In this document: positions 3,446 to 53,644 of the stretch, one piece after another
Numbering within the stretch: position 1 is the stretch's first letter
Layout of the letters: each line of letters begins with the position of its first letter
IMG/VR virus record: IMGVR_UViG_3300029220_000004
Source of the DNA: a virus
DNA: 64,000 nucleotides
Direction: 5' to 3' (one strand)
Notes under the pieces: model-generated
Seen by the model: only the letters and a program-made list of their open reading frames with translations
What the model was told of the DNA's origin: nothing
Databases searched by the model: none
Program-made: the position numbers and the translations under genes

Positions 3446-3768
3446 AAATAGGTCAGTAGCGTGATAAATGCGTAGCTACTGGCAAGTCGCTCATATCGAA
3501 ACCGTCAAGTAGGATATGAGTTATTAGTGATGAAATAAGCTGGAAAGCCGTTTGCAACGGTAATCAGAGAGTGAAGGCTATGATTAAAAGTATAGTCAAC
3601 CGCAACGCGTAGGAAGTGAAACTGTAGTTGAGATACTACAGAATATAATCTTCCCAAGAGGCATCACTATCGGACGGTACAGGTGCAGAGCCTGTGGTAA
3701 AAAGGTACGCTGGACATGCATTGTAATAATGCAGAAGTGAGGATAAAAAGCCTTACGATAACAAATCG
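3446..3768 (+). ncRNA. putative ORF-less group I self-splicing intron in the tape measure gene
   Basis: Removing 3446-3768 joins ...SETI|NQPANQIRMLQSNF in frame. The last exon nt is U (3445) and the last intron nt is G (3768). GTCG at 3486-3489 can pair with exon CGAU, giving a G.U at the splice site. Hairpins at 3454-3481, 3622-3641 and 3679-3695. AAAAGTATAGTC resembles the conserved AUAGUC core segment. Confidence 0.6.
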
Positions 3769-6700: not shown

Positions 6701-6862
6701 CGTGGTGTAGTTACTGCTTTGATGAACAATGGTGGCTTTGGCGGTTCTTCACCGGAGTACATCATGAACAGCATCAAAGTGAACGAGCGTGAACTGGCGC
6801 GAATTGTCACAAAGGCTCAGAACAACACAGATTACCGCATGAATCCGTCCCCGGCATATTGA
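3769..6862 (+). CDS. tail tape measure protein, exon 2
   Basis: Continues the TMP core (QPANQIRMLQSNFASLGRTIGSLFIPIL), then W/F-periodic repeats and TM-like segments. The two exons sum to 4650 nt (1549 aa plus stop). The ATG at 3716 in the ORF track lies inside the intron. Confidence 0.8.
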
Positions 6863-7218: not shown

Positions 7219-7351
7219 TTTTGGTAAAACCAGTAGGCTAGGGTAGCTCCCGAAAAGTGTAATTCCATGATACACCTGCCTACTGTTTTTATAAATCATG
7301 GATCTGTGGCTACAAGGCAGTCACGCATTAACGACATGGAGGTTATCTATT

Positions 7352-8512
7352 ATGAGCGAACAAATCAAAGAATTATCCCAAAATGAATTAGAAAGAAAAG
7401 TAGATTACATATTTTCACATAGATTTAATCACACTCTGCATGCTTATATCGATATTGCAGGTGATTTAACAGCAGGTGTTTTATTATCTCAAATTATGTA
7501 CTGGTTTGATAAAGATTCAAAAAATGAGTGCGTCAGAACAAAAATCAAAAAGAAAGGTTATTTTTGGATTGCTAGGCGTAGAGATGAATGGGCAAACGAA
7601 ATAAGAGTTGCACCTAAGCAGTATGATTCTGCGATGAAAAAATTAAAAGCTAGAAATTTGGTAGTTGTTGAAAAATTTAAAATTAATGGTGCTCCAACAA
7701 CGCATATCAGACCTAATGATGAAGTAATAAATGTTGCTATTAAAGAATGGAAAGAACAAATTGCTCTTGAAATTATCAAAGACAACGAAGCGGAACAAAG
7801 TGACGTGAATTCCTCAAATCAGAATTTACCAGAAGAGGAAAATCACGAAAAAGTAGTGCCAAATGATGATAAACACTGGTTTTCCCCAAAAGAGGAATTT
7901 CCAAATTCCCAAAACAAGGAAAACCATGGAATTTCCCAAAATGGGAAAATGGAACTTCCCCAAAATGGAAACTCTTTAATTAATAAGAACTATAATAAAG
8001 ATTTAGATGAGGTTTATAAAAAGAGGGTTAAAGATTCTGATACTACTAAAGTAGTACCAGTAGATTCTCCATGTCCGGGTAAGCCGGAAACAAGGAGCAT
8101 CCAGTCTCCACTCGGAATGGGAATAAGCGAAATCCTTTTGAGGAAAGGAATAAACCAATATTGGAATGATGTAGGATGCGAAGAGTATGAAGAATTGAAA
8201 ACAAATGTCACTAATGTCATATTATATTTTTTGGAAAAATACAAAATTAAACTAGGCAAAAGCCATGTTCATTTAAAAGAAGAATATATAAAAACCGTAG
8301 TAGAAGGAATTGTTACAGTACCAGACGAGATGATTGAGTTGATAGATGCTTATGGCTTTGAGTATATTTATAAATCATGCATTGACATGTATTTTGATAC
8401 AAAATTCAGAGAAGATACCAATTATCGTATTTTTCATTTCATAAAAGGTGATATTAGGAAAAATATTGCAATGAAACTTTCAGACCAAATAGAGTTGATA
8501 AGCGATAAATAA
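7352..8512 (+). CDS. DnaD/replication-initiator-like winged-helix protein
   Basis: Start at MSEQIKEL after GGAGG. N-terminal region (LLSQIMYWFDK...GYFWIARRRDEWANEI) looks like replication-initiator/HTH_36 domains. The C-terminal half is unassigned. Confidence 0.45.
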   Translation: MSEQIKELSQNELERKVDYIFSHRFNHTLHAYIDIAGDLTAGVLLSQIMYWFDKDSKNECVRTKIKKKGYFWIARRRDEWANEIRVAPKQYDSAMKKLKARNLVVVEKFKINGAPTTHIRPNDEVINVAIKEWKEQIALEIIKDNEAEQSDVNSSNQNLPEEENHEKVVPNDDKHWFSPKEEFPNSQNKENHGISQNGKMELPQNGNSLINKNYNKDLDEVYKKRVKDSDTTKVVPVDSPCPGKPETRSIQSPLGMGISEILLRKGINQYWNDVGCEEYEELKTNVTNVILYFLEKYKIKLGKSHVHLKEEYIKTVVEGIVTVPDEMIELIDAYGFEYIYKSCIDMYFDTKFREDTNYRIFHFIKGDIRKNIAMKLSDQIELISDK

Positions 8513-8656
8513 AAACGAATAGTTCCTGTGGCAACAGGCAATTAAAACGAGCCAAAATCCATTTAAAATACCGTAGGTGATAACTTCTTCACGTAAACGA
8601 TTCAAATTGATTCTGACTTAAAATAATACAGTAATTAATTAGAAAGTGAGAAAGAA

Positions 8657-8986
8657 ATGAGTAGACTTGGAAAAGAAATGCCGGCAGAGTATTCTGACCG
8701 ATTTGATGAACTGAGGCAAAACCGGTGCGAAACAAGCTTTTACAAATACGGCACGGCAAAAGATAATTTTGGAGAACGTCTGGTAAATGCGATTGAATCA
8801 CACGATATGTGCATTAAAAAATATAAAGAAACTGGTAACACGGAGTATCTTTGCGATGCTGCGAATTATCTGATGTTCGAATTTATGTATCCACAAATCG
8901 AAGGTGCTTATTTCAAAGCAACCGACAGTGGGAAAAGTGCCGGAGTAGTTGGAACACCAATTAATCAGTTAAAGGAGAAATGGTAG
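8657..8986 (+). CDS. hypothetical protein
   Basis: 109-aa ORF with RBS AGAAAGTGAGAAAG. No motif recognised. Confidence 0.5.
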   Translation: MSRLGKEMPAEYSDRFDELRQNRCETSFYKYGTAKDNFGERLVNAIESHDMCIKKYKETGNTEYLCDAANYLMFEFMYPQIEGAYFKATDSGKSAGVVGTPINQLKEKW

Positions 8987-9144
8987 GATGAAAAAATCGG
9001 GCAATTCTTATGGGAAACACGGATTATGAATCATTTTGCAAAGAGCACTTCGAAAGATTCATTTCTGATATCCAAAAGAAACATTAATATAACTTTTTCT
9101 TACTGAATCTCACCTTGTATATGTGATAGAATAAAGAATCATAA

Positions 9145-9217
9145 AGCGTCTATCAGAGCGATAGGCGCTATTTTCGTGTAATTAAGCATCTTCTTTCGGG
9201 AAGGTGCTTTTTCTTTT
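9145..9217 (+). terminator. two tandem rho-independent terminators
   Basis: AGCGTCTATC/GATAGGCGCT followed by ATTTT, then GCATCTTC/GGAAGGTGC followed by TTTTTCTTTT. They close the moron island just before the distal tail gene. Confidence 0.6.
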
Positions 9218-9229
9218 ATGAGGTGTTAT

Positions 9230-9592
9230 ATGGCAGAAATATTTTTAAAAGTAAACGGTGTCTCGATGCCTTGCCCGTCTTCCTACACATGGGGATTACA
9301 GGACGTATCAGCGGCAAAATCAGGAAGATCTGATGACTCTGTCATGCATAAAAACAGGGTAGCGCAAAAAAGAAAATTAGCTTTGCAGTGGAACGGTAAA
9401 GATTGGGCTACTACAGCTAAGATTCTTCAAGCGTTCAATCCCGAGTACATCCAAATTACATATCCAGATATGATGTCTGGAAAATACGAAACCAGAACAT
9501 TTTATGTTGGTGACAGGAGTGCGCCTGTTAAATGGTGGTGGCATGGAAACCAGAGAACAGAATCTATCAGTTTTGATGTGATTGAGAGGTGA
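9230..9592 (+). CDS. distal tail protein-like (small Dit-position protein)
   Basis: About 120 aa starting MAEIFLKVNGV. Sits immediately upstream of, and translationally coupled to, the large tail protein. Assignment is by position only. Confidence 0.5.
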   Translation: MAEIFLKVNGVSMPCPSSYTWGLQDVSAAKSGRSDDSVMHKNRVAQKRKLALQWNGKDWATTAKILQAFNPEYIQITYPDMMSGKYETRTFYVGDRSAPVKWWWHGNQRTESISFDVIER

Positions 9593-9595
9593 TGC

Positions 9596-12500
9596 ATGAG
9601 AAAATTATCTAACAGATGGAAAGAAAAAGTCAAGAACGGAATGGACGTGCAGTACCTCAAGTATGCAGATATCACACTTACAGACGGAACTGTACTCAAT
9701 CTGACCAGTGCCAATCTGTGGCAAAACGGAATGGAATTCGAAGATTCCGTGTCCGGGGATAGTAGCTTTGACATCGGTTCTGCAATCATTAATGTATTGA
9801 ATCTTAGCATTAATAATTTTGACGGTGAGTACTCCGATTACGATTTTGAGGGAGCAGAAGTCATATGTTATGTTGGATTACAGATTGAAGATGAGGACAC
9901 AAGTGAACTGTTAGATTCAGCTGGAGAACAAATACTGGATTCAACCGGCGATACAATTATAGTTCATAAAAATACGGTTATTGAAAAAACACGTATTTGC
10001 ACAGTGACAGTTATTGAACAGCCGGAAGACGAAACGGTGACCATAGACCTTACGTGTGAAGATAATATGCGGAAGTTTGACCGGAACTATTCAGACAGCA
10101 AATTGAAATATCCGGCAACCAGAGGGCAGATTGTACAAGATGCCTGCGAGGTATGTGGGGTTACTTTGCAAACAACATCATTTGACAGAGATGATTATAT
10201 CGTGCAGAATCGTCCAAATGACGAAGCTTTAACATTTCGCCAGGTTCTACAGTGGGTTGCGCAGATTGGCTGCCAGTGGATGAAATGCGATGAATATGGC
10301 AGATTGTGCATCAATTGGTACGGTTCTGTCAATGAAGAAGAACTTACAGTTGATGAACTTGGAGTATTAAAAACACAGGACGGAAGCAACGTTAATCTTA
10401 ACTTCTCGAACTCAGATGGTGCGTTGTCGGCTGACAATGGTACGCTTCTTGAAAATGATGGGATTCTGAGGCTTTTTGCAACTGACGAAAAAGGTAACAT
10501 TTCTGAAATAGAAACCACCTATGGTTTTACTCCGCATCATACAGATGTAGTAATCACAGGCGTGAAAGTAACTGAATACAGCGAATCCTCTTCTGATAAT
10601 CCGCAAACTTACATGGTTGGTACAGAGGGATATGTACTTGGAATTTCTGGTAATAAATTAATTCGTGTTGGCGATGGCCAGACGATTGCTTCAATGATTG
10701 CCGAGAAATGCGTTGGCATGAGATTTAGACCATTTGAATCCGAGTGTCCTACAGATGTGGCTCTGGAAGCCGGAGATTCACTGATTATTGTGGATAGAAA
10801 TGGGAAAATATACACATCGCTACTTACCACAACTACATTGAAACCGGGATCCGGTCAGAAGATAGCTTGTAATGCCAAAAGCGCTGCTAAAAATAGCAGC
10901 ACCCAATATTCCCAGGCGACGCAGGCATTTGTTACTGCAAGAAATATGGTTAAGCAGGAAAAAACCGAGAGAGAAAAAGCTCTTGAAGAATTTGGAAAAA
11001 GAATTGATTCAGCCACAGGAGTTTATACTACTGTTGAGCCACAGGAAAATGGAAGCAAAATCTTTTATTTACACGACAAACCAACTCTGGCAGAATCTCA
11101 GGCAATTTGGAAAATGACTTCTGAGGCATGGGGAGTGTCTACAGATGGTGGACAGACATGGAATGGTGGCATGACAGTTGATGGCGATACGATTGTAAGA
11201 ATTTTGAATGCAGTTGGAGTAAATGCAACGTGGATTAATACAGGAGCAATCACAGTAAAGGATGCAAACGAAAATATTCTTTTCCAAGTCGATATGGACA
11301 CCAAAACGGTTGTTATCGACCCAGATGTTTTGATTATCGGAAATATGACATTGTCCGAGAAATTGGAAAACATGGATGAGAATATTGCATCTGCCAAGAA
11401 TATGACATTCCAGCTGTCGAACGATATGCAGACGATCACATCTGACGCAGACGGCAACATTCCGGTATTTCCAACAGTGGCAACTACAGCGAAAGTTATG
11501 TACGGCTCGTCAGATATCACAAATGATTGTAGCTATACCATTACAAAATCAGACAGTGTAACCGGCTCTTGGGATGTAGATACACATACTTACACTGTCA
11601 CAGGCTTGAGTGCAGACAATGGATGGGTGGATATTAAGGCAACGTACCTGATTAATCTTTCTATAACGAAGAGATTTACGATTTCCAAGCAGAAATCAGG
11701 GAAAAACGGAAAACAGCTTTATACATGGAGAAAATACGCATCCATGCCGGATGGCTCTGATATGAGTGATAGCCCAGATTATGTAAAACTTCTGGACAGC
11801 GCCGAAAGTCCCATACTGGACAGTACCGGGGATAAAATCTATACAGTCACAGAAGCAATCTATGTTGGAATTGCTGATAATAAAACTACAGAAACACCGT
11901 CTGATAATCCGAAAGATTACATTTGGAGCCGTTTTCGCGGCGAAGACGGAGCGGATGGAATTGGCATTCCGGGAGAGAACGGAGAAACTTCTTACATCCA
12001 TACCGCTTATGCAAATAGTATTGACGGAACTGTGGATTTTTCCACAACTGATACAGATAGAATTTACATTGGTCATTATTCCGATTTCGAAAAGACGGAC
12101 AGTGCAGACCCAGCGAAATATACATGGGCGAGAATGCGTGGAGAAGACGGGCCTCCAGGAAGAACGTATTACCTGAGAGCCAACGCAGGAGTCCTGATGA
12201 TGGGACAGGATAAGAAAATAACTCCTAATCCATTCAAGGTTCATGCGTATTACAGAGATGGACAGGGTGACGAAGCAACTTTTAAAACCTGGTGGATAGT
12301 AGAATACAGCAAAGATGCCGGAAAAACATGGACAAAAATGGCCTTTAATTCACAGACCAGTGGAATAACTATTAATCCAGATAGCTATTCTCTTGGTGCT
12401 GACGGAATGATACGTGCAACAATTTATACGGATTCCGGAAGAACTAAAATCGCCGATCAGCAGACATGGCAGGTTGCTGTTGACGTTGGCATGCTTACGC

Positions 12501-16293: not shown

Positions 16294-17556
16294 TTACTGC
16301 AATTTAATTAATACTTTTTCATCAGTCCAGACGTTGGCAGTATACTCCAATTCTACAGACTGAGAATCAATTGGTATACTGTAATATGTAGAAAAAGAAA
16401 CACTTCTTCCAGAGGAAAGATTAGTATTTATGAAACCTCTGTTATCCAAACCATATGTTTGTTCACAAGTTTGATTATCAGCATAGCACTTAAAGTCATA
16501 GATACTTGCGTACTTGTCTGTGTTTCCAACATTATTGTATGTAAAAGATACCTTTGCATATTTCATTCCATCGGCAGGCGTATAAAGCCCGTATTCGTCT
16601 TCGTAATCCTGAAAATCAGTGTCCGCATCATCTACAGTGATTTGCAACCCGTTAACTTCAAATGTAGATCCGACAGTTACATAATCAGGTGCAGATTCTT
16701 CAACTGGCTCAGGAGTAGGCATATCAGAAGAATTATTGATTTCTTCTGATACTTCATTTGCAATATCCTGTATTTCTTGCTCGTATGTATTTTGTTTCGT
16801 CGGAGAAGGAGTGCTTGCACTGTCTGAATTAAGTCCTCCACTGCCCAAAACAAATACTGCCAATACGGGGAAAATGATTGACAATGCAATTCTTGTACCT
16901 TTTTTGAAATGATTGTATTTCCACATAACGAATAAACCGATAGGCCAGAATATCAAAATCATAAATACTGTAAATCCGGTAGATGCAAACACAGAATCCT
17001 TCTTTTGTTCTTCTTGAAACTGCTGATACGAGAATGAGCTAGACTGATTGCTAGCATTGTTTTGAACTTTTTGGATATTTACATTGGTTTCGCCAGATTT
17101 GAATTTGTCAGCATGGTTTTTAGCATATTCATTCACAAGATACCAATCGGAAACAAAATCTTTTTTAAAGTACTTGTCTGCTATGTTTACTAAAAAATCT
17201 TTAGTTATTTCATATTTTTCAGAGTTAGCATTTACACATATTTTAAAGGAATCCTTGTAGTTTGGGGTAGAAAATGCGATTTTAAGTTGGTTGCGGCCAA
17301 AATCATCTGGCTCTTCTTTTGAATAATTCAAAACAAAATCATCAACAGGAGATTCCATAATTTGATTGTGCTTATAGAAAACTTTGATTGTTTCTGATGT
17401 TGCTTGAATATACATAGAATCGTTTATCTCTACAGTATATTCTTTTGGTTTTTCTTTTTCGGGCTGCCCTTTGATTAATGGAAAACCACAGTTTGGACAA
17501 CTGGTAGCCTTGTCACTTATTTCTTTTCCACATTCAGGACATTTAATTATAGCCAT
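16294..17556 (-). CDS. zinc-ribbon / transmembrane / DUF4352-like membrane protein
   Basis: N-terminal CPECG...CPNCG zinc ribbon, two TM helices in the middle, and a C-terminal Ig-like DUF4352-type region (GLQITVDD...KVSFTYNNVG...SVELEY). Confidence 0.6.
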   Translation of the reverse strand: MAIIKCPECGKEISDKATSCPNCGFPLIKGQPEKEKPKEYTVEINDSMYIQATSETIKVFYKHNQIMESPVDDFVLNYSKEEPDDFGRNQLKIAFSTPNYKDSFKICVNANSEKYEITKDFLVNIADKYFKKDFVSDWYLVNEYAKNHADKFKSGETNVNIQKVQNNASNQSSSFSYQQFQEEQKKDSVFASTGFTVFMILIFWPIGLFVMWKYNHFKKGTRIALSIIFPVLAVFVLGSGGLNSDSASTPSPTKQNTYEQEIQDIANEVSEEINNSSDMPTPEPVEESAPDYVTVGSTFEVNGLQITVDDADTDFQDYEDEYGLYTPADGMKYAKVSFTYNNVGNTDKYASIYDFKCYADNQTCEQTYGLDNRGFINTNLSSGRSVSFSTYYSIPIDSQSVELEYTANVWTDEKVLIKLQ

Positions 17557-18816: not shown

Positions 18817-19158
18817 TCACTCACTTAAAAGATTAATCAATTCAACAATATGTTTCTTTTTGGCATCGGACAGTCCGAAGTATTTCTTTAATGCATCAGA
18901 CAGTTCGGTGTCTTTTCTTATCTGTGCAATCAAATGTGCAGATTCATCGGAAAAATCTTCTTCCGGTTCTTTTCCTGTCATTAGATAATCTACAGATACA
19001 CGGAAGAAATCTGCAATTTTTTGAAGTTTATCTTGCTTTGGCACACTTCTTCCCTTTTTCCAATCAGAAAAGGTAGATGCTGGTATACCAGTTGCTTTGG
19101 ATACATCTATTGCTTTTTTATTATTTTCAATTAACAAATTCACGAAAATCTCATACAT
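18817..19158 (-). CDS. CI-like XRE-family repressor
   Basis: HTH (KKAIDVSKATGIPASTFSDWKKGRSVPKQDKLQKIADFFRVSVDYL). Divergent from a cro-like gene. Confidence 0.8.
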   Translation of the reverse strand: MYEIFVNLLIENNKKAIDVSKATGIPASTFSDWKKGRSVPKQDKLQKIADFFRVSVDYLMTGKEPEEDFSDESAHLIAQIRKDTELSDALKKYFGLSDAKKKHIVELINLLSE

Positions 19159-19177: not shown

Positions 19178-19326
19178 TTAGGAATTCCGAAATTTGCCTA
19201 TTGACATTTTAGGATAACCGAAATATAATGTAATTGTGATTAAGGAAATCCGAAAAAAGGCAAAAAAATCCCTATCGCTTTTCATAATATCTTTGTGGTT
19301 ATTGATATTATATCGGATTTCCTAAA
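19178..19326. promoter_or_regulatory. four operator repeats TTAGGAWWHCCGAAA in the CI/Cro intergenic region
   Basis: TTAGGAATTCCGAAAT (19178), TTAGGATAACCGAAAT (19209), TTAAGGAAATCCGAAAA (19240), and an inverted copy ATCGGATTTCCTAAA (19312). Confidence 0.65.
19201..19229 (+). promoter_or_regulatory. consensus sigma-A promoter toward the cro-like gene
   Basis: TTGACA, 17-nt spacer, TATAAT. Operator copy 2 occupies the spacer. Confidence 0.65.
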
Positions 19327-19600: not shown

Positions 19601-20350
19601 ATGAACGAATTAATACCAATTAATTACGATGGCGAACAGCCTACAGTATCAGCCAGAGAGTTACATAAATCTCTTGAAATCAGTAAACGATTTTCGGCAT
19701 GGTTCGAAACAAACTCTCAGGGATTCATTGAGAACGAAGATTTTACAAGTGTACTTTCAGGTACGGTTGTAAATAACGGAGCACACAGAGAAATACAGGA
19801 CTATTCCTTATCAGTAGACATGGCAAAACACATTTGCCTTATGAGCAGAACTGAAAAAGGAAAAGAATGCAGGCAATATCTCATTGATCTTGAAAAAGCA
19901 TGGAACACACCAGAACAGGTTTTTGCCAGAGCATTAAAGATGGCAGATCAGACGATTGCGAAGCTGAAAGACACAAATAAGTTTCTTGCGGAGAAAATCG
20001 AAGCTGATAGACCGAAAACAATCTTTGCAGATGCGGTATCCGCAAGTCATACATCAATTCTTATCGGTGACTTGGCAAAACTTATCTGTCAGAACGGATA
20101 CCAGATAGGACAGAAACGATTATTCCAGTGGATGAGAGACAATGGCTATTTGATGGTTTCTGGAAGTTCACGAAATATGCCAAAACAGAAATACGTTGAG
20201 CAGGGATTGTTTGAAATCAAAGAATCTAACGTTCAGAATCCAGATGGTTCAGTGAGAATCACACGCACGACAAAAGTTAGTGGAAAGGGACAGTTGTATT
20301 TCGTGAATAAGTTTCTGGGACAGGAAACTGAAAAAGCAGACGGTGATTGA
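19601..20350 (+). CDS. antirepressor (AntA/ORF6N N-domain + KilAC C-domain)
   Basis: SARELHKSLEISKRFSAWF matches the ORF6N/AntA style. The C-terminus ...LIGDLAKLICQNGYQIGQKRLFQWMRDNGYL... matches KilAC. Confidence 0.75.
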   Translation: MNELIPINYDGEQPTVSARELHKSLEISKRFSAWFETNSQGFIENEDFTSVLSGTVVNNGAHREIQDYSLSVDMAKHICLMSRTEKGKECRQYLIDLEKAWNTPEQVFARALKMADQTIAKLKDTNKFLAEKIEADRPKTIFADAVSASHTSILIGDLAKLICQNGYQIGQKRLFQWMRDNGYLMVSGSSRNMPKQKYVEQGLFEIKESNVQNPDGSVRITRTTKVSGKGQLYFVNKFLGQETEKADGD

Positions 20351-26528: not shown

Positions 26529-27629
26529 ATGGCAGAAAACACACAGGTAGCAAATTTTAACACACAGCTTTCCTATTACACAAATCGGTATGTCGATTTA
26601 ATGGAAAGAGATTTGACTTCAAGAGGAATGGAATTTGATTCCTATTCAAAAGATTGTGTAGTAGCGGCAATGGGATCTATTTTCCAGATGGTGCATGAGA
26701 GCGGAGTAAGTTTTGAAGCAATCAACGGTTCTAATCTTAAATTTATCCTGAGTAAAGTAGCAGCGTTAAAGCTGAACGCAAACGCACAGCCGAGAGAGTG
26801 CTATTTCCAGATCAGAAACGTAAACGTAGCAGCGAAAGGGCAGAAACCTCAGTGGGAAAAGAAAATCGAATTTGCGATTGAGGGTGATGGAAATGATGCT
26901 CTTGTAAGTAGATATGGTGTCAATGTGGCTAAAGTATTTCCATATTGGAAAGTTAGAGAGGGTGACAAGTATATCCCACCAAGACACAGAGGTGTAGAAA
27001 TTACACCGCCGGAATGGGAAGAATCTGGAATTGGAAAAGTTGTTCGCGTCGTATATCCGATTCAGTATAAGGACGGACATATTGAATACCTTTCATGTGA
27101 AAGAGCAGACGTACTGAAGAATCTTGCAGCACATATTAAGAACAATCTTCAGAATGAAACATTTGGGATTTGTGCAGACAGATACAAAGCTACAGATGCA
27201 CAGAAAGCCCAGATTGAAGCAAAGAAAAAAGAAGTTATGAAAAAGGTTGCTGATATTGGGGAACTGGAAGCAATTATTGATTGTGAGGAATTAAGACCAT
27301 ACATTTCCCCGTCATACTACGAAACACAGTCGAGAGAATCTATGATTGTTCGTAAAATGCGTAACAACATTATGAAGTCCATTCCTAAGAAATGGGATAA
27401 TCCGGTGCAGGCTTATGAATATAACACGATGGATGCTACATACAGAGAAGTGCAGGAAGAAATCGAACAGAATGCCAATAAAGAGGAATTCATTCCAGAA
27501 CCAATGGCAATTGAAGAACAGCCTAAACAGCCAACAGTCGCAGAAGTCGTAAAGACTGCCGAGAAAGAACCAGTTCCGGCAGCAGTTGTTAAGCCAGAGA
27601 TTCCAGATTTTATGAAGCAGGAGGAATAA
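26529..27629 (+). CDS. recT: RecT-like single-strand annealing protein
   Basis: 366 aa. Core ...ECYFQIRNV...IEFAIEGDGNDALVSRYGV... is RecT-like and the C-tail is acidic/Pro-rich. Assigned by motif memory and context. Confidence 0.6.
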   Translation: MAENTQVANFNTQLSYYTNRYVDLMERDLTSRGMEFDSYSKDCVVAAMGSIFQMVHESGVSFEAINGSNLKFILSKVAALKLNANAQPRECYFQIRNVNVAAKGQKPQWEKKIEFAIEGDGNDALVSRYGVNVAKVFPYWKVREGDKYIPPRHRGVEITPPEWEESGIGKVVRVVYPIQYKDGHIEYLSCERADVLKNLAAHIKNNLQNETFGICADRYKATDAQKAQIEAKKKEVMKKVADIGELEAIIDCEELRPYISPSYYETQSRESMIVRKMRNNIMKSIPKKWDNPVQAYEYNTMDATYREVQEEIEQNANKEEFIPEPMAIEEQPKQPTVAEVVKTAEKEPVPAAVVKPEIPDFMKQEE

Positions 27630-27641
27630 CGAGGTGATAGC

Positions 27642-28034
27642 ATGATCGGGACGTTAGAAGAAGTCATGAAGGATATGAAATATGGCGTACTTGATTTCAC
27701 AAAGGACGGTAAATGCAGTGGTTGTGGACAATGTTGTAGCAACTACTTGCCAATATCCAGTAAAGAAATTAAACGTTACGTAAAGAAGCATCATATCACT
27801 GAACAGAAGCATAATTATCCTTCAGTTGTAGCTTTTGACCTTACTTGCCCGTTCCTGGATGATTCCAAAGAAAAAGAAAAATGTCTCATTTATCCAGTGA
27901 GACCTGAGATATGCAGAGATTTTGTCTGCAACAATCCGAACGGGGCAATCAAAAACAAGAAACTTATGCATAAGAAGTACGCAGCAGTAGATATGCGAGA
28001 AATATTTTTTGGAGGCAACGGGAATGAACAATAA
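27642..28034 (+). CDS. YkgJ-type cysteine-cluster (UPF0153) protein
   Basis: CSGCGQCC...CPFL...C...CRDFVC pattern. Confidence 0.6.
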   Translation: MIGTLEEVMKDMKYGVLDFTKDGKCSGCGQCCSNYLPISSKEIKRYVKKHHITEQKHNYPSVVAFDLTCPFLDDSKEKEKCLIYPVRPEICRDFVCNNPNGAIKNKKLMHKKYAAVDMREIFFGGNGNEQ

Positions 28035-28629
28035 AGAAATTTTACAGAAAGCAAAGGAACTGGTTGAACTTCTGGAAAAGCAGGAAGAAACCGGAAAGGT
28101 TGAGTTGTCAACGCTGAAACGAGGAGAAGTATTTCAGACCACTGGAAAGCGTAAATACAAGGTTCTGGAACAGTATGGAGATACAACAAAAATTATTTCG
28201 CTTGATCTGGTGAAAGAAAATGTAGAGTTTGGTGATACCTCAGATTACAAAACATCAAACGTAAAGAAACTGTGTGACACTGAAATTCTGAAAGACTTCG
28301 AAGAAGAATTCGGGGCAGAAAATGTCGAAACACACACAGCAGATATTATCACTGCGGATGGACAGAAATTGGGGACTGTTGATTGTAAAATCCGTCCAAT
28401 TACATTTGATGAAGCACGAGAATACACAGATATTACACCGAACAATGATCTGAACGACTGGTATTGGATATTATCGCCATGGTCAACGGAAGAACGTGGA
28501 TGGAAAAGAAGTATTACTATTGTTTCCCCTTCGGGCTGTATCGGCGTCAACAGTTACGGCAACGTCTATGGTGTTCGCCCAGTTTGTATCTTAAAATCTA
28601 ATATCTTTGTATCTAAGGTGGAGGAATGA
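28024..28629 (+). CDS. DGR target protein 1 (C-type-lectin/DUF6273-like C-terminus)
   Basis: ATG 28024 after GGAGGC. C-terminus WYWILSPWS...IVSPSG-CIGVNSYGNVY-GVRPVCIL carries VR1. Confidence 0.85.
   Translation: MNNKEILQKAKELVELLEKQEETGKVELSTLKRGEVFQTTGKRKYKVLEQYGDTTKIISLDLVKENVEFGDTSDYKTSNVKKLCDTEILKDFEEEFGAENVETHTADIITADGQKLGTVDCKIRPITFDEAREYTDITPNNDLNDWYWILSPWSTEERGWKRSITIVSPSGCIGVNSYGNVYGVRPVCILKSNIFVSKVEE
28520..28580 (+). repeat. DGR variable repeat VR1
   Basis: 61-bp match to the TR with 11 mismatches, all at TR adenines. Confidence 0.9.
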
Positions 28630-28631
28630 TT

Positions 28632-29231
28632 ATGAAGAAAAATCTGAAATATTTTGAGGATGAATTATCCAGATTAAGTAAAGAGTTCGCAGAATTCAAG
28701 AAAAAGCACATCGGAAAGCCGGAAATCGGAAAAGCTATTGAACTTGCTGGTATGGAATGGCTGATTCTGGATAAGACAGAAAAAGGATATTTTGCCATTT
28801 TGAATGGATTTGATGGAAAAGAAAGAACATTTGATTCAGCTTCAAATAACTGGATTTCAAGTAAACTGAGAAATGAGTTAAACACTCGTTTTCTTAAAAA
28901 AATTACGGACGAGCTTGGAGAAGATGCAGTTATTGAGTTTGATCGAGATTTACTTTCTATGGACGGTCAGACAGAATATGCACATTGTAAAGATAAGATT
29001 TCGATTTTGACGGTGGATGAATACCGAAAATACAGAAAATTCCTTCCAAATATGGATAAATGGTGGTGGCTGCTTACTCCATGGAGTACACCAGCAAATG
29101 ATTACAGTACAACAATTGCTATTGTTTCCCCTTCGGGCTTTATCTACTACGGCATTTTCGACTACGAATATGGTGTTCGCCCAGTTTGCATCTTTTCTTC
29201 TTCAATCTTTGAATCAGGAAATGATGATTGA
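28632..29231 (+). CDS. DGR target protein 2 (paralog of target 1)
   Basis: C-terminus WWWLLTPWS...IVSPSG-FIYYGIFDYEY-GVRPVCIF carries VR2. RBS GGTGGAGG. Confidence 0.85.
   Translation: MKKNLKYFEDELSRLSKEFAEFKKKHIGKPEIGKAIELAGMEWLILDKTEKGYFAILNGFDGKERTFDSASNNWISSKLRNELNTRFLKKITDELGEDAVIEFDRDLLSMDGQTEYAHCKDKISILTVDEYRKYRKFLPNMDKWWWLLTPWSTPANDYSTTIAIVSPSGFIYYGIFDYEYGVRPVCIFSSSIFESGNDD
29122..29182 (+). repeat. DGR variable repeat VR2
   Basis: 61-bp match to the TR with 10 mismatches, all at TR adenines. Confidence 0.9.
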
Positions 29232-29602
29232 TGGCGAATGAAGATTTAAAGGTAATAGCAAAATCCAAGCAACTTGCAAAGCATACATTAATAGTTACGA
29301 GTAATGCCAGACGATACCCGAAGAAATACAGGTTTTCACTTGTAGATAAAATGCAAAATAAAGCATTGGAAATTTATGAGTCACTATTTGAAGCCAACCG
29401 AACTGATCTGAAAGATTATAAAAGAGAACGATTAGAACTTCAAACAAAAGCCATTACTCATTGTGATGAGTTGATGTACTTTATAGAACTTTCATATGAA
29501 TTGGGAATTATCAATTCCGGTGGAATGGAAGCATGGTCGCAAATGGTAAAAGATATAAAGTATATGACTATTTCATGGAGAACAAAAGACAGAAAAAGAT
29601 AA
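29231..29602 (+). CDS. avd: Avd-like accessory variability determinant (four-helix-bundle protein)
   Basis: About 123 aa, helical and basic (KSKQLAKHTLIVTSNARRYPKKYRFSL...). ATG overlaps the target 2 stop. Sits between the target and the TR. Confidence 0.75.
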   Translation: MANEDLKVIAKSKQLAKHTLIVTSNARRYPKKYRFSLVDKMQNKALEIYESLFEANRTDLKDYKRERLELQTKAITHCDELMYFIELSYELGIINSGGMEAWSQMVKDIKYMTISWRTKDRKR

Positions 29603-29631
29603 TTTTCACAGGTTATGCACTGCGAATACCG

Positions 29632-29692
29632 TTGTTTCCCCTTCGGGCTATATCAACAACAACAATTACAACAACGAAAATGGTGTTCGCCC
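29632..29692 (+). repeat. DGR template repeat (TR) core
   Basis: TTGTTTCCCCTTCGGGCTATATCAACAACAACAATTACAACAACGAAAATGGTGTTCGCCC. AAC/AAT-rich with 19 adenines, noncoding, 105 nt upstream of the RT. Confidence 0.9.
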
Positions 29693-29797
29693 AACATGGA
29701 TCACATGCAGACAGAGTAAGCGTAAAGCTGAAATCAGAAAAGATACAAGCAAATGCATAACCTTTCCGCAATGGACAAACATAAAGGAACAAAATAA

Positions 29798-30817
29798 ATG
29801 GATAAAGAAATTGTTGCAAATTTTGAGAATTTATATCGTTCTTACAAAAAGGTTAAGAGCGGTAAAAAATTTAATTCAGGTACTGCAAGATTTTCTAATT
29901 TGTCTCTTGAAGGCATTCATCTCTTGAAGGAACAATTAGAAAGTCAAACGTATACCATAAATCCGTATAATAAATTTCAAATTCATGAGCCAAAAGAGCG
30001 AACGATAGAATCATGTGCATTTAAGGACAAAGTAGTGCAGAGATGCTTTTCTGATTACATTCTGACGCCGAATCTTGAAAATATCCTGATTAAATGGAAT
30101 ACTGCCGGGCAGCAAGGAAAAGGGCAACATATGGCAATGGACGGGTTAAGAAATCAAATGTTGGATTTCTATAAAAGAAATGGAATGAATAGTTGGATTG
30201 TAAAATGTGATATTCACAAATACTTTTATTGCATAGACCATGAAATCATGAAAGATGTTTTGGATTATTACTTTGATGATGATTTTACAGTCTGGTTGAA
30301 CCATTTGTTTATTGACAGTACAGGTAATCCCGGGCTTCCATTAGGAAATCAGGTAAATCAGAAGTACGCATTGTTGCTTTTACATTCACTGGATCAGATG
30401 ATAACGATTGAATTTGGAAATCCATATTACGGACGATACAACGATGATTTTTATGTGATTTGTAAAACGAAAGAAGATGCCAGAGAAATTCTTGAGGCAA
30501 TCCAAAAGATGGTTGAAAGCCTTAGATTGGAACTAAACCCTAAATCACAAATTGTACCGTTTCGCATGGGCTTGTGTTATCTGGGCTTTCATCATTACGT
30601 GACTGATAAAGGAAAATATATCCGAAAGTTGCGCGGGGACAAAAAAAGAAAGACACAAAGAAAAATCCGAAGATGGGTACGGGCAATGAATGACGGGAAG
30701 ATGTCGATAGAAAAATTTCATGAAAAATACGGAGCATGCAAGAATCATATGCTTCATGGAAATTGCACCAAACTATGTCATAGTATGGATTTAGAAATTG
30801 AAAGGAGAATGAAATGA
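29798..30817 (+). CDS. DGR reverse transcriptase
   Basis: 339 aa. RT motifs: KCDIHKYF, LPLGNQVNQ, YGRYNDDF (catalytic box) and LGF. Confidence 0.85.
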   Translation: MDKEIVANFENLYRSYKKVKSGKKFNSGTARFSNLSLEGIHLLKEQLESQTYTINPYNKFQIHEPKERTIESCAFKDKVVQRCFSDYILTPNLENILIKWNTAGQQGKGQHMAMDGLRNQMLDFYKRNGMNSWIVKCDIHKYFYCIDHEIMKDVLDYYFDDDFTVWLNHLFIDSTGNPGLPLGNQVNQKYALLLLHSLDQMITIEFGNPYYGRYNDDFYVICKTKEDAREILEAIQKMVESLRLELNPKSQIVPFRMGLCYLGFHHYVTDKGKYIRKLRGDKKRKTQRKIRRWVRAMNDGKMSIEKFHEKYGACKNHMLHGNCTKLCHSMDLEIERRMK

Positions 30818-31164
30818 GATTAGTAAGTCAGAATGGGGAATTTGATGTCCCTTATGAAATCGTAGCATTAAGCAGAACTGGAAATATCATAAAAGCATAT
30901 GTGCCAATGGTAGGTGAAAAAGGAACAATTATAGCTCGTTATTCGACAAATGAAAAAGCCCAAAAAGCTATGAAAGCGTTGCATAAAGTGTATGCAGGAA
31001 TGTTTTTTGCGCAAAACGTTGAAATGAGCGATGACGATTACGAGGAATGCATAAAAATGGCTGCAAGAGGTTTTGGAATCATCAAAACCATGGTTAACAG
31101 TCCAGATATGAAATTCGAACCGGCAAACATTGTGTTTAGATTCCCGGAGGATGATGAAGTATGA
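30814..31164 (+). CDS. hypothetical protein (paralog family with 35539-35772)
   Basis: MRLVSQNGE...RYSTNEKAQKAMKALHKVY...EDDEV, compared with MLIRSQNKA...RYSSEAKAMKVLDMIQEAY...EDSEV. Confidence 0.55.
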   Translation: MRLVSQNGEFDVPYEIVALSRTGNIIKAYVPMVGEKGTIIARYSTNEKAQKAMKALHKVYAGMFFAQNVEMSDDDYEECIKMAARGFGIIKTMVNSPDMKFEPANIVFRFPEDDEV

Positions 31165-31591: not shown

Positions 31592-31628
31592 ATGCAATGT
31601 ACAGAAAGCGAGGTGATGTCATTTGTTC

Positions 31629-32391
31629 ATGCGAGTAATTTCAACAGGTAGTACCAAAGGAAATTGTTACGCTTTGCAGTCAAGTGCAGACGAGATTGTT
31701 CTTCTTGACTGCGGGTGCAACTACAAGAAAATCCTCAGAGGGATTGACTATTGGATAAGCAATATTGATGCAGTACTTCTTTCTCATGAACACGGGTGAC
31801 CATACAAAGTCATTCAAGGAAATAATGAATGCAGGCATTCAGATTTACACCAATGACGAGACAGTTGAGAACATGAACATCCGAACAGGCGAATTAATGA
31901 AAGGTGTTCCAGAAAGGCATCCATTTAGAGTTGGTTCGTTTAACGTGATTCCATTTGAATTGCCGCATACAACATACGATAAGGAAGCAAATCAGCTTGT
32001 ACCTTGCTCGAACTACGGATATCTGGTGGAGCACAATGAAATGGGGAAGCTTCTGTATATTACTGATTTTGAGTACAGTAAATATAATTTCCAGAAAATG
32101 AACATACATCATCTGGTAATTGAATGCAACTACTGTGAAGAATTGGTGGACAAAACAGAAGCTAACTACAGTCATAGATTAAAAGGACATTGCTCTTTGT
32201 CAACTTGCAAGCAATTCATTAAGCAAAATCGCACAGAATCGCTTCGGACGGTAACACTGGTACATTTAAGTGGTCAGGCATCTGATGCCTGTAAAATACA
32301 GAAAGAAATACAGGAAGTCGCAGGAGACAATGTTCTGGTTCAGATTGGGCGGGCTGGACTGGAAGTTGACTTGAATTTATGCCCGTTTTGA
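31629..32391 (+). pseudogene. MBL-fold metallo-hydrolase, frame broken in the HxHxDH motif
   Basis: Frame 1 gives MRVISTGSTKGNCYALQS...LLSHEHG then TGA (31797). Frame 2 continues GDHTKSF... Removing one G from the GGG run at 31794-31796 restores SHEHGDH. Confidence 0.7.
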
Positions 32392-32529: not shown

Positions 32530-32866
32530 TAAGCTTAAAAAACAGACACAGTACGGGGAAATAGCAGAGCCATATTTGAATTGCAAGTACAATAAAGGTT
32601 GGAATGATGCACTAGAAAAAGTTGAAGAACTGATTGCTTCTTACAACTTGAGTGAAAACTGGATTCCGGTAGATATGAAACTCCCGCCAGAACCAAAACC
32701 TAATCATATATTTAAAGGAGACATATATTTGATTACTGTCAAAAAAGGAACAATACCTTTCAGAGCAATGTGGAATGGTGAATATTTTACAGACGGTTTC
32801 GAAAAGTTAGAAGTAATTGCGTGGATGCCGTTGCCTGAACCGTATAAGGAGAAAAAACATGAATAA
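32504..32866 (+). CDS. DUF551-like protein
   Basis: WIPVDMKLPPE...VIAWMPLPEPYKE signature. Paralog of 36648-37049. Confidence 0.6.
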   Translation: MKIFLKVIDKLKKQTQYGEIAEPYLNCKYNKGWNDALEKVEELIASYNLSENWIPVDMKLPPEPKPNHIFKGDIYLITVKKGTIPFRAMWNGEYFTDGFEKLEVIAWMPLPEPYKEKKHE

Positions 32867-33281
32867 AGTAATTTTGATCGGACGGTTGATTAAAGATCCA
32901 GATGTCCGAATGGGAACGAACAACACAACAATTGCCAGATACACACTTGCAGTTGAGAGACAGTATCGCAAAAACAATGAACGCACATCAGACTTCATAA
33001 ATTGTGTTGCGCTTGGAAAAAATGGTGAGTTTGCCGAAAAGTACTTGCATAAAGGCATGAAAATTGCGATTGTCGGCTCATGGCAGACTGGAAATTACAC
33101 TGACAAGGACGGAAAGAAAGTCTACACAAATGATTGCCTTGTGGAAACACATGAGTTTGCAGAAAGCAAGAAGAACCAGCCAGAAGAACAGTCGCAGCCA
33201 CCAGTTCCAAGTCCAGAACAGGACACAAGTGGATTCATGGATATGCCGTCAATTATGGATGACGAACTTCCGTTTAATTAA
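32859..33281 (+). CDS. ssb: single-stranded DNA-binding protein
   Basis: MNKVILIGRLIKDPDVR...OB fold; acidic tail ending DDELPF. Confidence 0.85.
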   Translation: MNKVILIGRLIKDPDVRMGTNNTTIARYTLAVERQYRKNNERTSDFINCVALGKNGEFAEKYLHKGMKIAIVGSWQTGNYTDKDGKKVYTNDCLVETHEFAESKKNQPEEQSQPPVPSPEQDTSGFMDMPSIMDDELPFN

Positions 33282-45240: not shown

Positions 45241-45258
45241 ACATGATATGTGCGGCAC
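45241..45258. repeat. left inverted repeat flanking the serine recombinase gene
   Basis: ACATGATATGTGCGGCAC. Its reverse complement matches 46694-46711 at 17 of 18 positions. Contains the dyad ATGTGC-G-GCACAT. Confidence 0.7.
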
Positions 45259-45283
45259 ATTTCTACACAAAGGAGGAATAGTC

Positions 45284-46648
45284 ATGGAATGTGTTGCGTA
45301 TTTGCGTGTATCAACAGAAAAACAGGTCGAAGAGGGAAATGGATTAGACAGTCAGAAAAGAGATATTGAAAATTATTGCAGAAAAAATCAATTGATTATA
45401 TCTGATTGGTACGAGGATGACGGCTTCACAGGTTCGAATATGAATCGTCCAGAATTGCAACGCTTAATTAATGATTGCTCAAAGAAAAAATTAAAATGTG
45501 TTGTAGCGTTTAAACTAGATCGATTATCAAGAAGCATGGTCGATGGAATATACTTAATTGAACGTGTATTCATACCTAATGGGGTGGATTTTAGATGCGT
45601 GCATGATAGTGTAAGCTACGACAGCCCAATGGAGCAAGCATACACTCAGATGATGGCAGTGTTTGCGCAACTTGACAAAAATACTATGTTGCTTAGAATG
45701 CGTGGCGGTATGCTGGAGCGAGTGAAACAAGGATATTGGATGGGAGGTGGCAACACCCCTTATTGCTATAGATATAGCAAAGAAGACGGAATCTTAGTTC
45801 CCATACCAGAACGCAAAGAAATGGCTTTGCGAGCTATGAATTTGTATATATCCGGTTATTCTGATGTTCGAATACAGAAATTGATAGGATTTAAAAGCGA
45901 GTTTGTTACACGACAGGTTCTTACCAGTCCTGTAAATATTGGCATGATTCCGTATAAAGGGAAACTATATAAGGGAAGACATGAACCAATTTTCGATATT
46001 AAAGTATTCGAATTAGCCCAGGAATTAAGAAAAACTCGTAAGCAAAGTAAAAGCTTCTGTGTTAATCACGAGAATCAGCTCTTGACGGGGCTGTGCTATT
46101 GCGGAGTGTGCGGATGCAAGATGAGATATCAGAAGTGGACTCATGGGAAACATAAAATTTATTGCTATTCAAGGGATAACGGCATGTCGTACTTACCAAA
46201 TTATAATCCGAATTGCAACAATTCGCTTGAGTGGGCAGAAGATATTGAAAAGCAGGTTGAAGATGAGATTTTAAAGATTTCCCTCAATTTATCATCGCAT
46301 AAGCCAAAAGAAAGAGAAAGCTGTCTGGACATTTTGAGTAAACAACTCCAAAAAGAGAAAACGAAGCTAAAACGTCTGTATACTCTTTATGCTGAGGGAA
46401 ATGATACGGTTCTGGAGATGATAAAAGAAACGGAATCCGGCATAGATGAACTAAAAATAAAAATACAGAACGAGATGAAGAACCCGGATAACTCACAGAA
46501 GAAAGAATTTGTATACGATAATATAAAAAAGCTTGCCGATGTGTGGGAACACATTGACAAGCAAAACAAAAACCGTATATTAAAAACTATAATATCAAAA
46601 ATAATTATAGTCAATGGAAATATTGAAATACAGTTGAAGAAATTTTAG
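45284..46648 (+). CDS. large serine recombinase (integrase-type)
   Basis: AYLRVSTEKQ catalytic-Ser motif, a resolvase domain, a recombinase domain, a zinc-ribbon (CGVCGCKMRY...C) and a coiled-coil C-terminus. Confidence 0.85.
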   Translation: MECVAYLRVSTEKQVEEGNGLDSQKRDIENYCRKNQLIISDWYEDDGFTGSNMNRPELQRLINDCSKKKLKCVVAFKLDRLSRSMVDGIYLIERVFIPNGVDFRCVHDSVSYDSPMEQAYTQMMAVFAQLDKNTMLLRMRGGMLERVKQGYWMGGGNTPYCYRYSKEDGILVPIPERKEMALRAMNLYISGYSDVRIQKLIGFKSEFVTRQVLTSPVNIGMIPYKGKLYKGRHEPIFDIKVFELAQELRKTRKQSKSFCVNHENQLLTGLCYCGVCGCKMRYQKWTHGKHKIYCYSRDNGMSYLPNYNPNCNNSLEWAEDIEKQVEDEILKISLNLSSHKPKERESCLDILSKQLQKEKTKLKRLYTLYAEGNDTVLEMIKETESGIDELKIKIQNEMKNPDNSQKKEFVYDNIKKLADVWEHIDKQNKNRILKTIISKIIIVNGNIEIQLKKF

Positions 46649-47565: not shown

Positions 47566-48123
47566 TTATATTTCGTATAACAAATCACGTTTTTTGTACA
47601 CTTCATTGAATCTTTTAGATTGATCTACGCTGACTGGGTCGGTAAAATCCAAAGGGAATGATGTAACTGGTACTTTGTTATCCAGTAAAAACATCATAAG
47701 TGCTACGTAACTGCATTTACCGCTTTTGAGCTGTTCTATACCGCTTTCAATTTCTTTGTTAAGTTCATCATCGGAAGTTTTGGGAAGTAAGATCTTTAAA
47801 GTGCCGTATTTGAAAGAATAATAAGTTTTCATAGTTTTTTCTCCTTTTTTGTATAGTTCATCTGGCGTACATAATCTGTCAACGTAAATATCTTTGAGCG
47901 AGTTTACAAAATCGTAAACATCTTTCTCAAATAATTTTCCGGCTTTCAGCACTATTTGAAACGGGGCAGTTGCGAGACTACCTTCTTTTTCATATCTTTG
48001 CCATTGCCTTAAAGATATTCCGATTTTATCAGCAACTTCTTGCTGAGTTAATCCGGAATTTATTCTCATTTGCCTTAATTGATTTGGAAGTTTAAAAGTT
48101 TTATTTTGCTGTTTGTTATCCAT
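47566..48123 (-). CDS. XRE-family HTH regulator with a C-terminal domain
   Basis: LRQMRINSGLTQQEVADKIGISLRQWQRYE. Confidence 0.75.
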   Translation of the reverse strand: MDNKQQNKTFKLPNQLRQMRINSGLTQQEVADKIGISLRQWQRYEKEGSLATAPFQIVLKAGKLFEKDVYDFVNSLKDIYVDRLCTPDELYKKGEKTMKTYYSFKYGTLKILLPKTSDDELNKEIESGIEQLKSGKCSYVALMMFLLDNKVPVTSFPLDFTDPVSVDQSKRFNEVYKKRDLLYEI

Positions 48124-53505: not shown

Positions 53506-53584
53506 AACGATACCTCCTATAATTATATAATAAACGCAAACGTTTCAAAAATCAATAATAATTCACTTGAATGTGAACAATATA

Positions 53585-53613
53585 CTTGCAATCGCACACG
53601 CTAAGGTGTATAA
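53585..53613 (+). promoter_or_regulatory. promoter TTGCAA-17-TATAAT
   Basis: Upstream of the resolvase gene. Confidence 0.6.
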
Positions 53614-53644
53614 TTTATTTATAAAGAAACAGGGGCGTGTATAT

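Follow-up and report, generated by a model that had tools for sequence, protein, structure and literature searches.

What does a phage diversify when its diversity-generating retroelement (DGR) lies far from its tail genes? Adaptive immunity aside, DGRs are the only systems known in nature that hypermutate chosen proteins, and the textbook reading of their role in phages is tropism switching through a receptor-binding fibre. The question is raised by a 64,000-nucleotide stretch of viral DNA (IMG/VR record IMGVR_UViG_3300029220_000004), hereafter the window, for which an original prediction made from the sequence alone had proposed that a DGR diversifies two tandem small proteins of the early/recombination module, here called T1 and T2, and not a tail fibre. 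The analysis reported here recovers a complete DGR within an early recombination operon and leads, tentatively, to a reading of its targets as intracellular binding proteins.

The complete DGR occupies positions 28024-30817 of the window (about 2.8 kb) and combines two tandem targets, each with a variable repeat (VR), an Avd-like open reading frame (ORF), a template repeat (TR) and a reverse transcriptase (RT):

28024-28629, + strand: DGR target T1, 201 aa from ATG, or 206 aa if read from the upstream TTG at 28009
28519-28581, + strand: VR1 core, with a 33-nt mutable stretch at 28537-28569 encoding CIGVNSYGNVY in the beta-hairpin of T1 residues 173-184
28626-29231, + strand: DGR target T2, 201 aa, a paralogue of T1
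29121-29183, + strand: VR2 core, with a 33-nt mutable stretch at 29139-29171 encoding FIYYGIFDYEY, T2 residues 172-182
29228-29602, + strand: Avd-like ORF, 124 aa, in the canonical slot between target and TR
29631-29693, + strand: TR core, 63 nt, in the avd-RT intergenic region
29798-30817, + strand: DGR reverse transcriptase, 339 aa, starting after a 195-nt spacer 3' of avd

Start and stop codons overlap at the junctions of T1 with the CxxCxxCC gene upstream of it, of T1 with T2, of T2 with avd and of RT with the next gene. The RT matches RVT_1 (Pfam, 48.3 bits, 1.3e-12) and, by tblastn, the annotated DGR RTs of phages nd12, nd4, Brigit, Toutatis and Lagaffe as well as BPP-1 Brt (25% identity, E 4e-23); it carries the motifs YNDD and LGNQVNQ, the latter a variant of the DGR motif [ILV]GxxxSQ with Asn replacing the usual Ser. 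The 124-aa ORF is termed Avd-like because of its position and its Pfam matches, both sub-threshold (23S_rRNA_IVP, 29.7 bits against a cut-off of 33.8; bAvd, 18.2 bits against 40), and its protein is conserved at 95-100% in close and 49-74% in distant relatives, always in the T2-RT interval. PADLOC gave no match for T1, T2, the Avd-like protein or the neighbouring genes, and only generic RT/DRT matches for the RT; a reading of the latter as a defence RT was rejected, the TR/VR anatomy and activity being clear despite these matches.

A 76-nt repeat is present in three copies, near the 3' end of T1 (28515-28590), near the 3' end of T2 (29117-29192) and in the avd-RT spacer (29627-29702). Across the 63-nt cores, 11 of the 12 differences between TR and VR1, and 10 of the 11 between TR and VR2, fall at TR adenines. 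The AAC/AAT-rich TR follows the usual DGR design, its mutable 33 nt at 29649-29681 reading TAT ATC AAC AAC AAC AAT TAC AAC AAC GAA AAT, and the encoded VR peptides stand in the contexts SPSGCIGVNSYGNVYGVRPVCI (T1) and SPSGFIYYGIFDYEYGVRPVCI (T2). TR-VR homology spans about 29627-29702, with 3' divergence beginning past GGTGTTCGCCCA; this stretch is common to all three repeats, after which both VRs continue as GTTTG(T/C)ATC and the TR as ACATGGATC, so that the shared stretch and the subsequent divergence form a putative boundary resembling an initiation of mutagenic homing (IMH) site. Each VR ends 48 nt upstream of the stop codon of its target. Reduced to its non-adenine bases, the TR pattern has exactly three matches in the window (0.00 expected from 100 shuffles), namely VR1, VR2 and the TR itself, with no third remote VR; in relatives of 75-81 kb, at most VR1, VR2 and TR were found. 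A remote VR in a tail protein or in a protein bearing immunoglobulin-like (Ig) domains, as in Brigit and Shimadzu, was rejected on the grounds that the window holds only these three TR-like matches and the 75-81 kb relatives no more than that. One 43-kb relative (L132, IMGVR_UViG_3300045988_060245) has four TR/VR-pattern matches at 8390-10066, spaced 510-602-510 nt, which could mean that a TR or VR has been duplicated, or could stem from the assembly.

Equally informative is the variation among relatives. TR, VR1 and VR2 could all be extracted from 31 of 80 related loci retrieved from IMG/VR, and in these the VRs are altered at 628 of 1206 TR-adenine positions (52%) as against 15 of 840 non-adenine positions (1.8%); 28 distinct VR1 and 30 distinct VR2 sequences are accompanied by only 10 TR variants. 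With the TR near-constant and almost every VR unique, both targets are therefore actively and independently diversified. Homologues of T2 form more than 3000 clusters at 90% identity, and among the 120 closest the residue entropy reaches about 3 bits at positions 172-182, compared with a mean of 0.23 bits elsewhere. That the cassette is a complete, naturally active DGR is, in both anatomy and activity, near-certain. In these respects the original prediction stands: the two tandem paralogues of about 200 aa are both 201-aa ORFs, 30% identical to each other, their independent diversification is evident in the 31 loci, and the two proposed VR peptides are recovered exactly.

The next question concerns the kind of protein that is diversified. 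T2 matches Pfam DUF6273 (PF19789) with 30.1 bits, above the cut-off of 23.5, and T1 falls just under it with 22.2 bits; both match phrog_9958, a PHROG family of unknown function (T1, 8e-24; T2, 3e-47). AlphaFold2 monomer models, built from a 108-sequence alignment (pLDDT, the model's per-residue confidence, 96.4 for T1 and 95.6 for T2), predict a single N-terminal helix (T1 residues 3-23, T2 residues 2-27) and a single compact alpha/beta domain, from which the VR projects as a surface beta-hairpin carrying the eleven diversified residues. The T2 helix is amphipathic, with hydrophobic residues at 7/7 heptad a/d positions (M3, L7, F10, L14, L17, F21, F24), and could pack on the domain or make a coiled coil. 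The best solved Foldseek match is 9qa6, the N-terminal DUF6273 domain of the Thomasclavelia ramosa IgA protease (E 5e-6; PMC12402451), and this IgA-protease domain is the only match of the sequence profile in the PDB; Foldseek matches to C-type lectins are weak (E about 0.2-0.3), and in the viral library BFVD the matches are DUF6273 phage proteins with a TM-score of up to 0.71. Mtd (1YU0), the BPP-1 target with which the structures were also to be compared, is absent from the top 50 Foldseek PDB matches. Pfam, PHROG and the models reveal no Ig-like, fibre, beta-prism, adaptor or other attachment domain in either protein. Neither T1 nor T2 has a signal-peptide-like or transmembrane-like hydrophobic segment, and among the 150 nearest 50%-cluster representatives, whose median length is 206 aa, not one has a signal-like N-terminus. 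For want of such a segment the idea of a secreted protein or lipoprotein was rejected, as was a tail-fibre or Mtd-like reading for want of the corresponding domains and PDB match. The models thus support the view that T1 and T2 are neither fibre-like nor Mtd-like, each being predicted to consist of a helix and one DUF6273 lectin-fold domain. With one such domain, a short terminal helix and a 3' VR, they fit the small single-domain 'target2' class of DGR targets; at 201 aa and with no Ig-like domain beside the lectin part, they fall outside the larger targets known as tentaclins.

Genomic position bears on the question independently of fold, and the surroundings of the cassette are as follows:

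0.1-13.4 kb: tail module including the tape measure (PHROG)
13.8-15.2 kb: endolysin (PHROG)
18817-19158, - strand: repressor, divergently oriented (PHROG)
19201-19229, + strand: candidate early lytic promoter, TTGACA-17-TATAAT, 12/12 consensus, between repressor and Ant
19601-20350, + strand: anti-repressor Ant (PHROG)
26529-27629, + strand: RecT-like ssDNA annealing protein (phrog_2185, 2.9e-119), upstream neighbour
27642-28034, + strand: CxxCxxCC zinc/iron-chelating domain protein (PF03692, 45.7 bits), left cassette boundary
30814-31164, + strand: conserved early gene (phrog_25456), right cassette boundary
31765-32391, + strand: MBL-fold metal-dependent hydrolase, downstream of the DGR
32817-33281, + strand: SSB, downstream of the DGR

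On the + strand, SSB-like, SbcC-like, RecT and CxxCxxCC genes (PHROG) precede the cassette, and past the RT follow genes for the MBL hydrolase, SSB, a DNA methylase, DnaD-like and DnaC-like proteins and a large serine recombinase. The cassette lies 8.8 kb downstream of the consensus promoter and about 15 kb from the tail genes; a consensus scan of 19.2-34 kb found nothing terminator-like on the + strand, and a promoter scan no visible late promoter upstream of the targets. The promoter at 19201-19229 is likely, from its consensus match, to head the + strand operon containing the DGR. Because of gene order, promoter, lack of a terminator-like site and overlapping codons, the cassette is taken to be embedded in an early recombination operon. 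This gut phage, which has a lysogeny-type repressor/anti-repressor switch, encodes its own 1261-aa tail protein with host-range/adsorption PHROG matches; its head and packaging genes are outside the window, near-complete relatives measuring about 75-85 kb.

This arrangement is widely kept. In all 80 IMG/VR loci T1 is followed directly by T2 and the pair lies among SSB/SbcC/RecT/MBL genes, a setting that persists in a clade at 46-53% identity despite reshuffled neighbours. A GTDB scan based on an alignment gave matches from which 20 divergent genome loci were retrieved, in Lachnospiraceae (Mediterraneibacter, Lachnospira, Roseburia, Agathobacter, Dorea), Oscillospiraceae and other Clostridia; the closest genome-resident relatives are in Lachnospiraceae, and Lachnospira intestinalis CLA-AA-H89B carries one at 48%. 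Most of these 20 loci have the order pair-avd-RT at 31-59% identity, and many have SSB/RecT/MBL genes or a repressor upstream; no tail or lysin markers were found in their flanks, although the markers are too divergent for this absence to weigh much. Homologues consistently placed in tail modules or fused to fibre adaptors, the finding that would have counted against the original prediction, were thus not seen: the 80 viral loci keep the pair among recombination genes, most of the 20 Clostridia loci keep it in tandem, and the small homologues described below are placed among early or replication genes in Brigit and Toutatis/Lelie and ahead of SSB/DnaC in nd4. Its other structural and positional claims likewise agree with the data, namely a C-type-lectin/DUF6273-like scaffold (T2 above and T1 just below the Pfam cut-off, with a lectin-like fold in AlphaFold2), no signal peptide or transmembrane helix, placement between RecT/CxxCxxCC and early genes well away from the tail module, and, from the models and the early-operon location together, a nature other than that of a tail fibre.

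Conservation of the pair goes together with dispensability of the cassette. A second survey, anchored on RecT at least 93% identical, yielded 72 relatives with enough downstream sequence, among which 32 have the pair with an RT, 13 the pair without RT and two a single copy, while 25 lack the whole cassette; the pair is therefore not needed to build the particle in this lineage. Sixteen of the 25 cassette-less relatives bear the CxxCxxCC gene, and in these a clean junction of about 10-200 nt separates it from the conserved gene that comes after it, in most cases the 30814 homologue. In some close relatives a 160-aa HNH/AP2-like ORF replaces avd-TR-RT and leaves T1-T2 intact (locus L029, 10740-11222; also L038-L040 and L064), or the 30814 homologue stands directly 3' of T2 (L016, L025, L030). 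The T1-T2 pair consists of intact ORFs down to about 31-35% identity in the GTDB loci, and this, together with retention after RT loss, argues against junk. The cassette is a discrete accessory island within the early recombination/replication operon.

Small targets of this kind are not confined to the present lineage. A megablast of window positions 20-40 kb against INPHARED phages found no relative (one 48-nt chance match). By tblastn the small class was located in annotated phages at 28-32% identity to T2:

FP_Brigit gp06, 203 aa: first gene past the regulators, before exonuclease-RecT
FP_Toutatis gp24 / Lelie orf58: methylases on one side, replication initiation / antiterminator Q on the other
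nd4 tgt2: preceded by amidase and hypothetical genes, with SSB/DnaC further downstream

In Brigit, Toutatis/Lelie, nd4 and nd12 the RT is in the late region beside an Ig-bearing tentaclin, 10-41 kb from the small target. In Brigit gp06 (NC_047909; loci L006, 3948-4559, and L092, 9300-9800) a VR matches, over 80 nt, a TR located 41 kb from it, and seven of the nine differences fall at TR adenines; the Brigit DGR has a remote early-region target besides the Hoc-like gp60. The Roseburia phage Shimadzu, with another RT lineage (RT 27% identical) and another lectin subfamily, has its second VR in a 209-aa lectin-type protein, orf43, whose gene immediately precedes Erf and SSB, and all 15 differences of this VR fall at TR adenines; both Shimadzu VRs were shown experimentally to be diversified, the function of orf43 being left unknown (bioRxiv 10.1101/575076). 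Larger DUF6273 proteins, by comparison, occur in structural modules, as in Brigit gp60 and the Hoc-like protein of Moorella phage MCACPph1, and the 407-aa DUF6273 protein of FP01 adjoins tail genes (PMC13432834). There is a dichotomy between small single-domain targets among early genes and large multi-domain ones among late genes.

Fusion partners offer a further view of the small class, which numbers 1302 clusters at 50% identity. DUF6273 is the only match in 122 of the 135 nearest 50%-cluster representatives; fusions, each confined to a single cluster, join it to DUF4406, DUF4869, Cas5d, a Lar restriction-alleviation zinc ribbon and, once, an Ig-like domain. An nd12 tgt2-like protein carries DUF3310, which is also present in T7 gp1.7, in SaV, an early protein of lactococcal phage, and in early proteins of mycobacteriophages that are cytotoxic (PMC8306868, PMC10700055). 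These partners suggest an early intracellular gene pool, DUF3310, the Lar ribbon and DUF4406 being typical of early phage proteins that act inside the cell. A 389-aa head-to-tail fusion of a T1-like and a T2-like protein (P0121), on a 2-kb metagenomic contig, could be natural or a sequencing frameshift; if real, it hints that the paralogues act together.

Comparison with described systems places the locus more precisely. Small single-domain DUF6273 targets have been published for nd4/nd12 (tgt2; PMC10743442), the Faecalibacterium phages Lelie/CP11 (PMC11792537) and Toutatisvirus (second target; bioRxiv 10.1101/2024.10.15.618418), and these papers usually assume them to be receptor-binding. Together with that of Brigit they resemble T1/T2 in size (about 200-290 aa), single DUF6273 domain, 3' VR hairpin, short flanking helix and absence of a signal peptide; they differ in being single remote second targets in phages that also have a tentaclin, whereas here a tandem pair adjoins its own avd-TR-RT and no tentaclin or third VR was found, and in having the helix mostly at the C-terminus instead of the N-terminus. 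Tentaclins (Mushu, Brigit gp60, nd4/nd12 target1) share the DUF6273 fold and the DGR-diversified hairpin, but have an N-terminal lectin domain, 1-4 Ig-like domains, a C-terminal anchor motif and a VR near the 5' end (PMC10743442), whereas T1/T2 lack Ig domains and have a 3' VR. The BPP-1 DGR shares the order target-avd-TR-RT, adenine-specific mutagenesis, a related RT and a VR at the C-terminus of a C-type-lectin-fold domain; Mtd, however, is a 381-aa protein whose beta-prism and beta-sandwich attach it to tail fibres and whose gene lies beside tail genes (PMC10743442), whereas T1/T2 are two 201-aa proteins with only a helix before the lectin domain, encoded between RecT and SSB. The original contrast with Mtd is accordingly right about the proteins, yet it overstated their novelty, small DUF6273 targets and non-structural targets having been published before. 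ORF84, the second target of the Bacteroides phage Quimbyvirus, and Shimadzu orf43 are likewise phage DGR targets outside the structural module, and for the former Benler et al. proposed a non-structural, conflict-related role tied to defence/counter-defence (PMC8008677); in each of these phages, however, a structural target adjoins the RT, the non-structural target is a single gene, and the target families and RT lineages are not those found here. What is distinct here is a whole DGR in an early operon, with no structural target found, an ancient tandem pair and the status of an accessory island.

How, then, might such a system work? The TR transcript would be reverse-transcribed with adenine-specific errors and the cDNA would replace the 33-nt mutable stretch near the 3' end of both adjacent paralogous genes, which is the established DGR mechanism. 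T1 and T2 would be expressed from the early operon as hypervariable binding proteins that form no part of the virion and act inside the cell during infection. Their task would most plausibly belong to the conflict between phage and host, where they would bind some variable factor of the host or of a competitor; the pair probably works jointly or as oligomers through the heptad-patterned N-terminal helices, and each variant genome would come under selection on entering a new host. It is plausible that expression is early and the role intracellular, and we hold, tentatively and with a confidence that stays a little short of even, that T1/T2 are early non-structural intracellular binders and not a receptor-binding fibre. 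A bolder version, in which they would be the first phage 'adaptive' intracellular binders, resembling an antibody repertoire whose rare variants neutralise a variable host defence, host or competitor factor, we regard as unlikely on present evidence; its extension to the small early-region targets of Brigit, Toutatis, nd4/nd12, Shimadzu and Quimbyvirus as one functional class seems doubtful to a similar degree.

Several considerations weigh against an intracellular role. Gene position is not the same as timing, and products of early operons can persist and enter virions; the promoter and terminator calls are consensus matches from which we infer function, and the informative fusions are single metagenomic clusters that could be gene-calling artefacts. 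All experimentally characterised phage DGR targets are virion-exposed (PMC8144416; PMC10743442), and our literature search found no virion proteomics for this lineage and no virion proteomics, expression, localisation or binding data for small DUF6273 targets. In sister lineages one TR serves both an Ig-bearing tentaclin/Hoc-like or tail target and a small target, a sharing that would be natural if both bound extracellular ligands. Both a weak PHROG match to phrog_10993 ('Hoc-like head decoration'), which covers the lectin domain alone, and weak Foldseek matches to collectin neck plus carbohydrate-recognition domain (CRD), similar in combining a helix with a lectin domain, point the same way. 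The neck-CRD architecture of collectins gives multivalent surface binding.

Much of this evidence speaks for a different account, in which T1/T2 are accessory virion adhesins or decorations, docked through coiled-coil-type helices and binding surface glycans or gut mucus; their genes would simply lie outside the late operon, and the proteins would function like Mtd or the tentaclin/Hoc-like targets. Besides the virion exposure of every characterised target (PMC8144416; PMC10743442), it can draw on a domain common to tentaclins, the FP01 407-aa protein (PMC13432834) and the Moorella phage MCACPph1 protein, on the perfect 3-4 hydrophobic repeat of the T2 helix with the collectin-like matches, on the single TR that Brigit, Toutatis and nd4/nd12 use for an Ig-bearing and a small target, and on accessory presence/absence, which is also typical of decoration proteins. 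It has to contend, however, with the consistent position of the small class among early, recombination and replication genes in unrelated lineages, with T1/T2 having no Ig, fibre, beta-prism or known attachment domain, with fusion partners that are early-protein domains (Ig-like in one of the 135 nearest representatives) and with the absence of a visible late promoter upstream. We take this account to be a serious one whose chances are nonetheless on the lower side. The intracellular binders may further be set against soluble lectins, released through lysis or vesicles to serve the lysogen population or to act on the mammalian host as a form of lysogenic conversion. A 2026 preprint reports that the DUF6273 tentaclin of a prophage, Mushuvirus, is expressed in lysogeny and found in the secretome or vesicles without particles (bioRxiv 10.64898/2026.05.08.723808), and an accessory cassette whose T1/T2 are kept in relatives lacking avd/RT would suit such a role; yet T1, T2 and the 150 nearest representatives have no signal peptide, and the genes overlap their neighbours in a repressor-controlled operon with no strong promoter of their own. 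Because the operon lies downstream of the repressor-controlled switch and the genes lack such a promoter, expression in a stable lysogen is not expected, and we consider release improbable. Least probable, in our judgement, is that T1/T2 are functionless, the selfish or decaying parts of a mobile DGR unit that has landed in a permissive variable island and accumulates neutral diversity. It would fit that relatives are polymorphic for the cassette at one site, that avd/RT have been lost repeatedly and that an HNH-like ORF stands in their place in some relatives, but the pair is intact to about 31-35% identity across Lachnospiraceae and Oscillospiraceae loci, its scaffold is strongly conserved, with a mean entropy of 0.23 bits where the VR has about 3, and it is retained in 13 of 72 relatives without RT.

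Some further features of the window were recorded in passing. The tape measure is in two ORFs about 250 nt apart (1890-3464 and 3716-6862), which match phrog_28918 positions 1-195 and then 198-914; a frameshift, an intervening element or an assembly error could account for this. A DnaD-like helicase-loader/replication-initiation ORF (7298-8512; phrog_6493, 1.5e-13) lies amid the tail genes, with the tape measure on one side and the distal part of the module on the other, which is unusual for a gene of replication. The MBL-fold hydrolase appears as two overlapping ORFs (31623-31799 and 31765-32391), with the same split in relative L002 (2922-3098 and 3134-3700), and may reflect a programmed frameshift or two genuine genes. 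The large serine recombinase (45248-46648) closes the + strand early block; beyond it, a block on the minus strand includes another repressor-like gene (47566-48123, - strand), and further on lies a DNA invertase (53567-54235). The true attachment site and lysogeny module may be in this region. A 420-aa minus-strand ORF (16294-17556) was rejected as integrase, its PHROG matches covering the first ~25-50 residues only. A 485-aa 'RNA-binding protein' (57504-58961; phrog_850, 2e-136) and an RNA ligase (62189-62776; phrog_14301) hint at a module for RNA repair, which might serve against anticodon nucleases.

The window offers a clean natural separation of a DGR from the tail, with the cassette and both targets in an early recombination operon, in an arrangement conserved across many gut Clostridia phages even though the cassette is dispensable. 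The placing of DGR targets in the early region is a recurring and little-discussed arrangement, and the small early-gene 'second targets' of several gut phages pass from scattered notes of 'unknown function' to a testable class. If the intracellular role is true, the DGR would be a diversification engine for counter-defence or host takeover, and the 'adaptive binder' reading, if true, would be a major finding; if T1 and T2 are instead virion decorations, the case shows that an accessory adhesin can have its gene among the early ones and share their regulation. Either outcome refines the annotation of DGR targets in viromes, which are currently assumed to be tail proteins.

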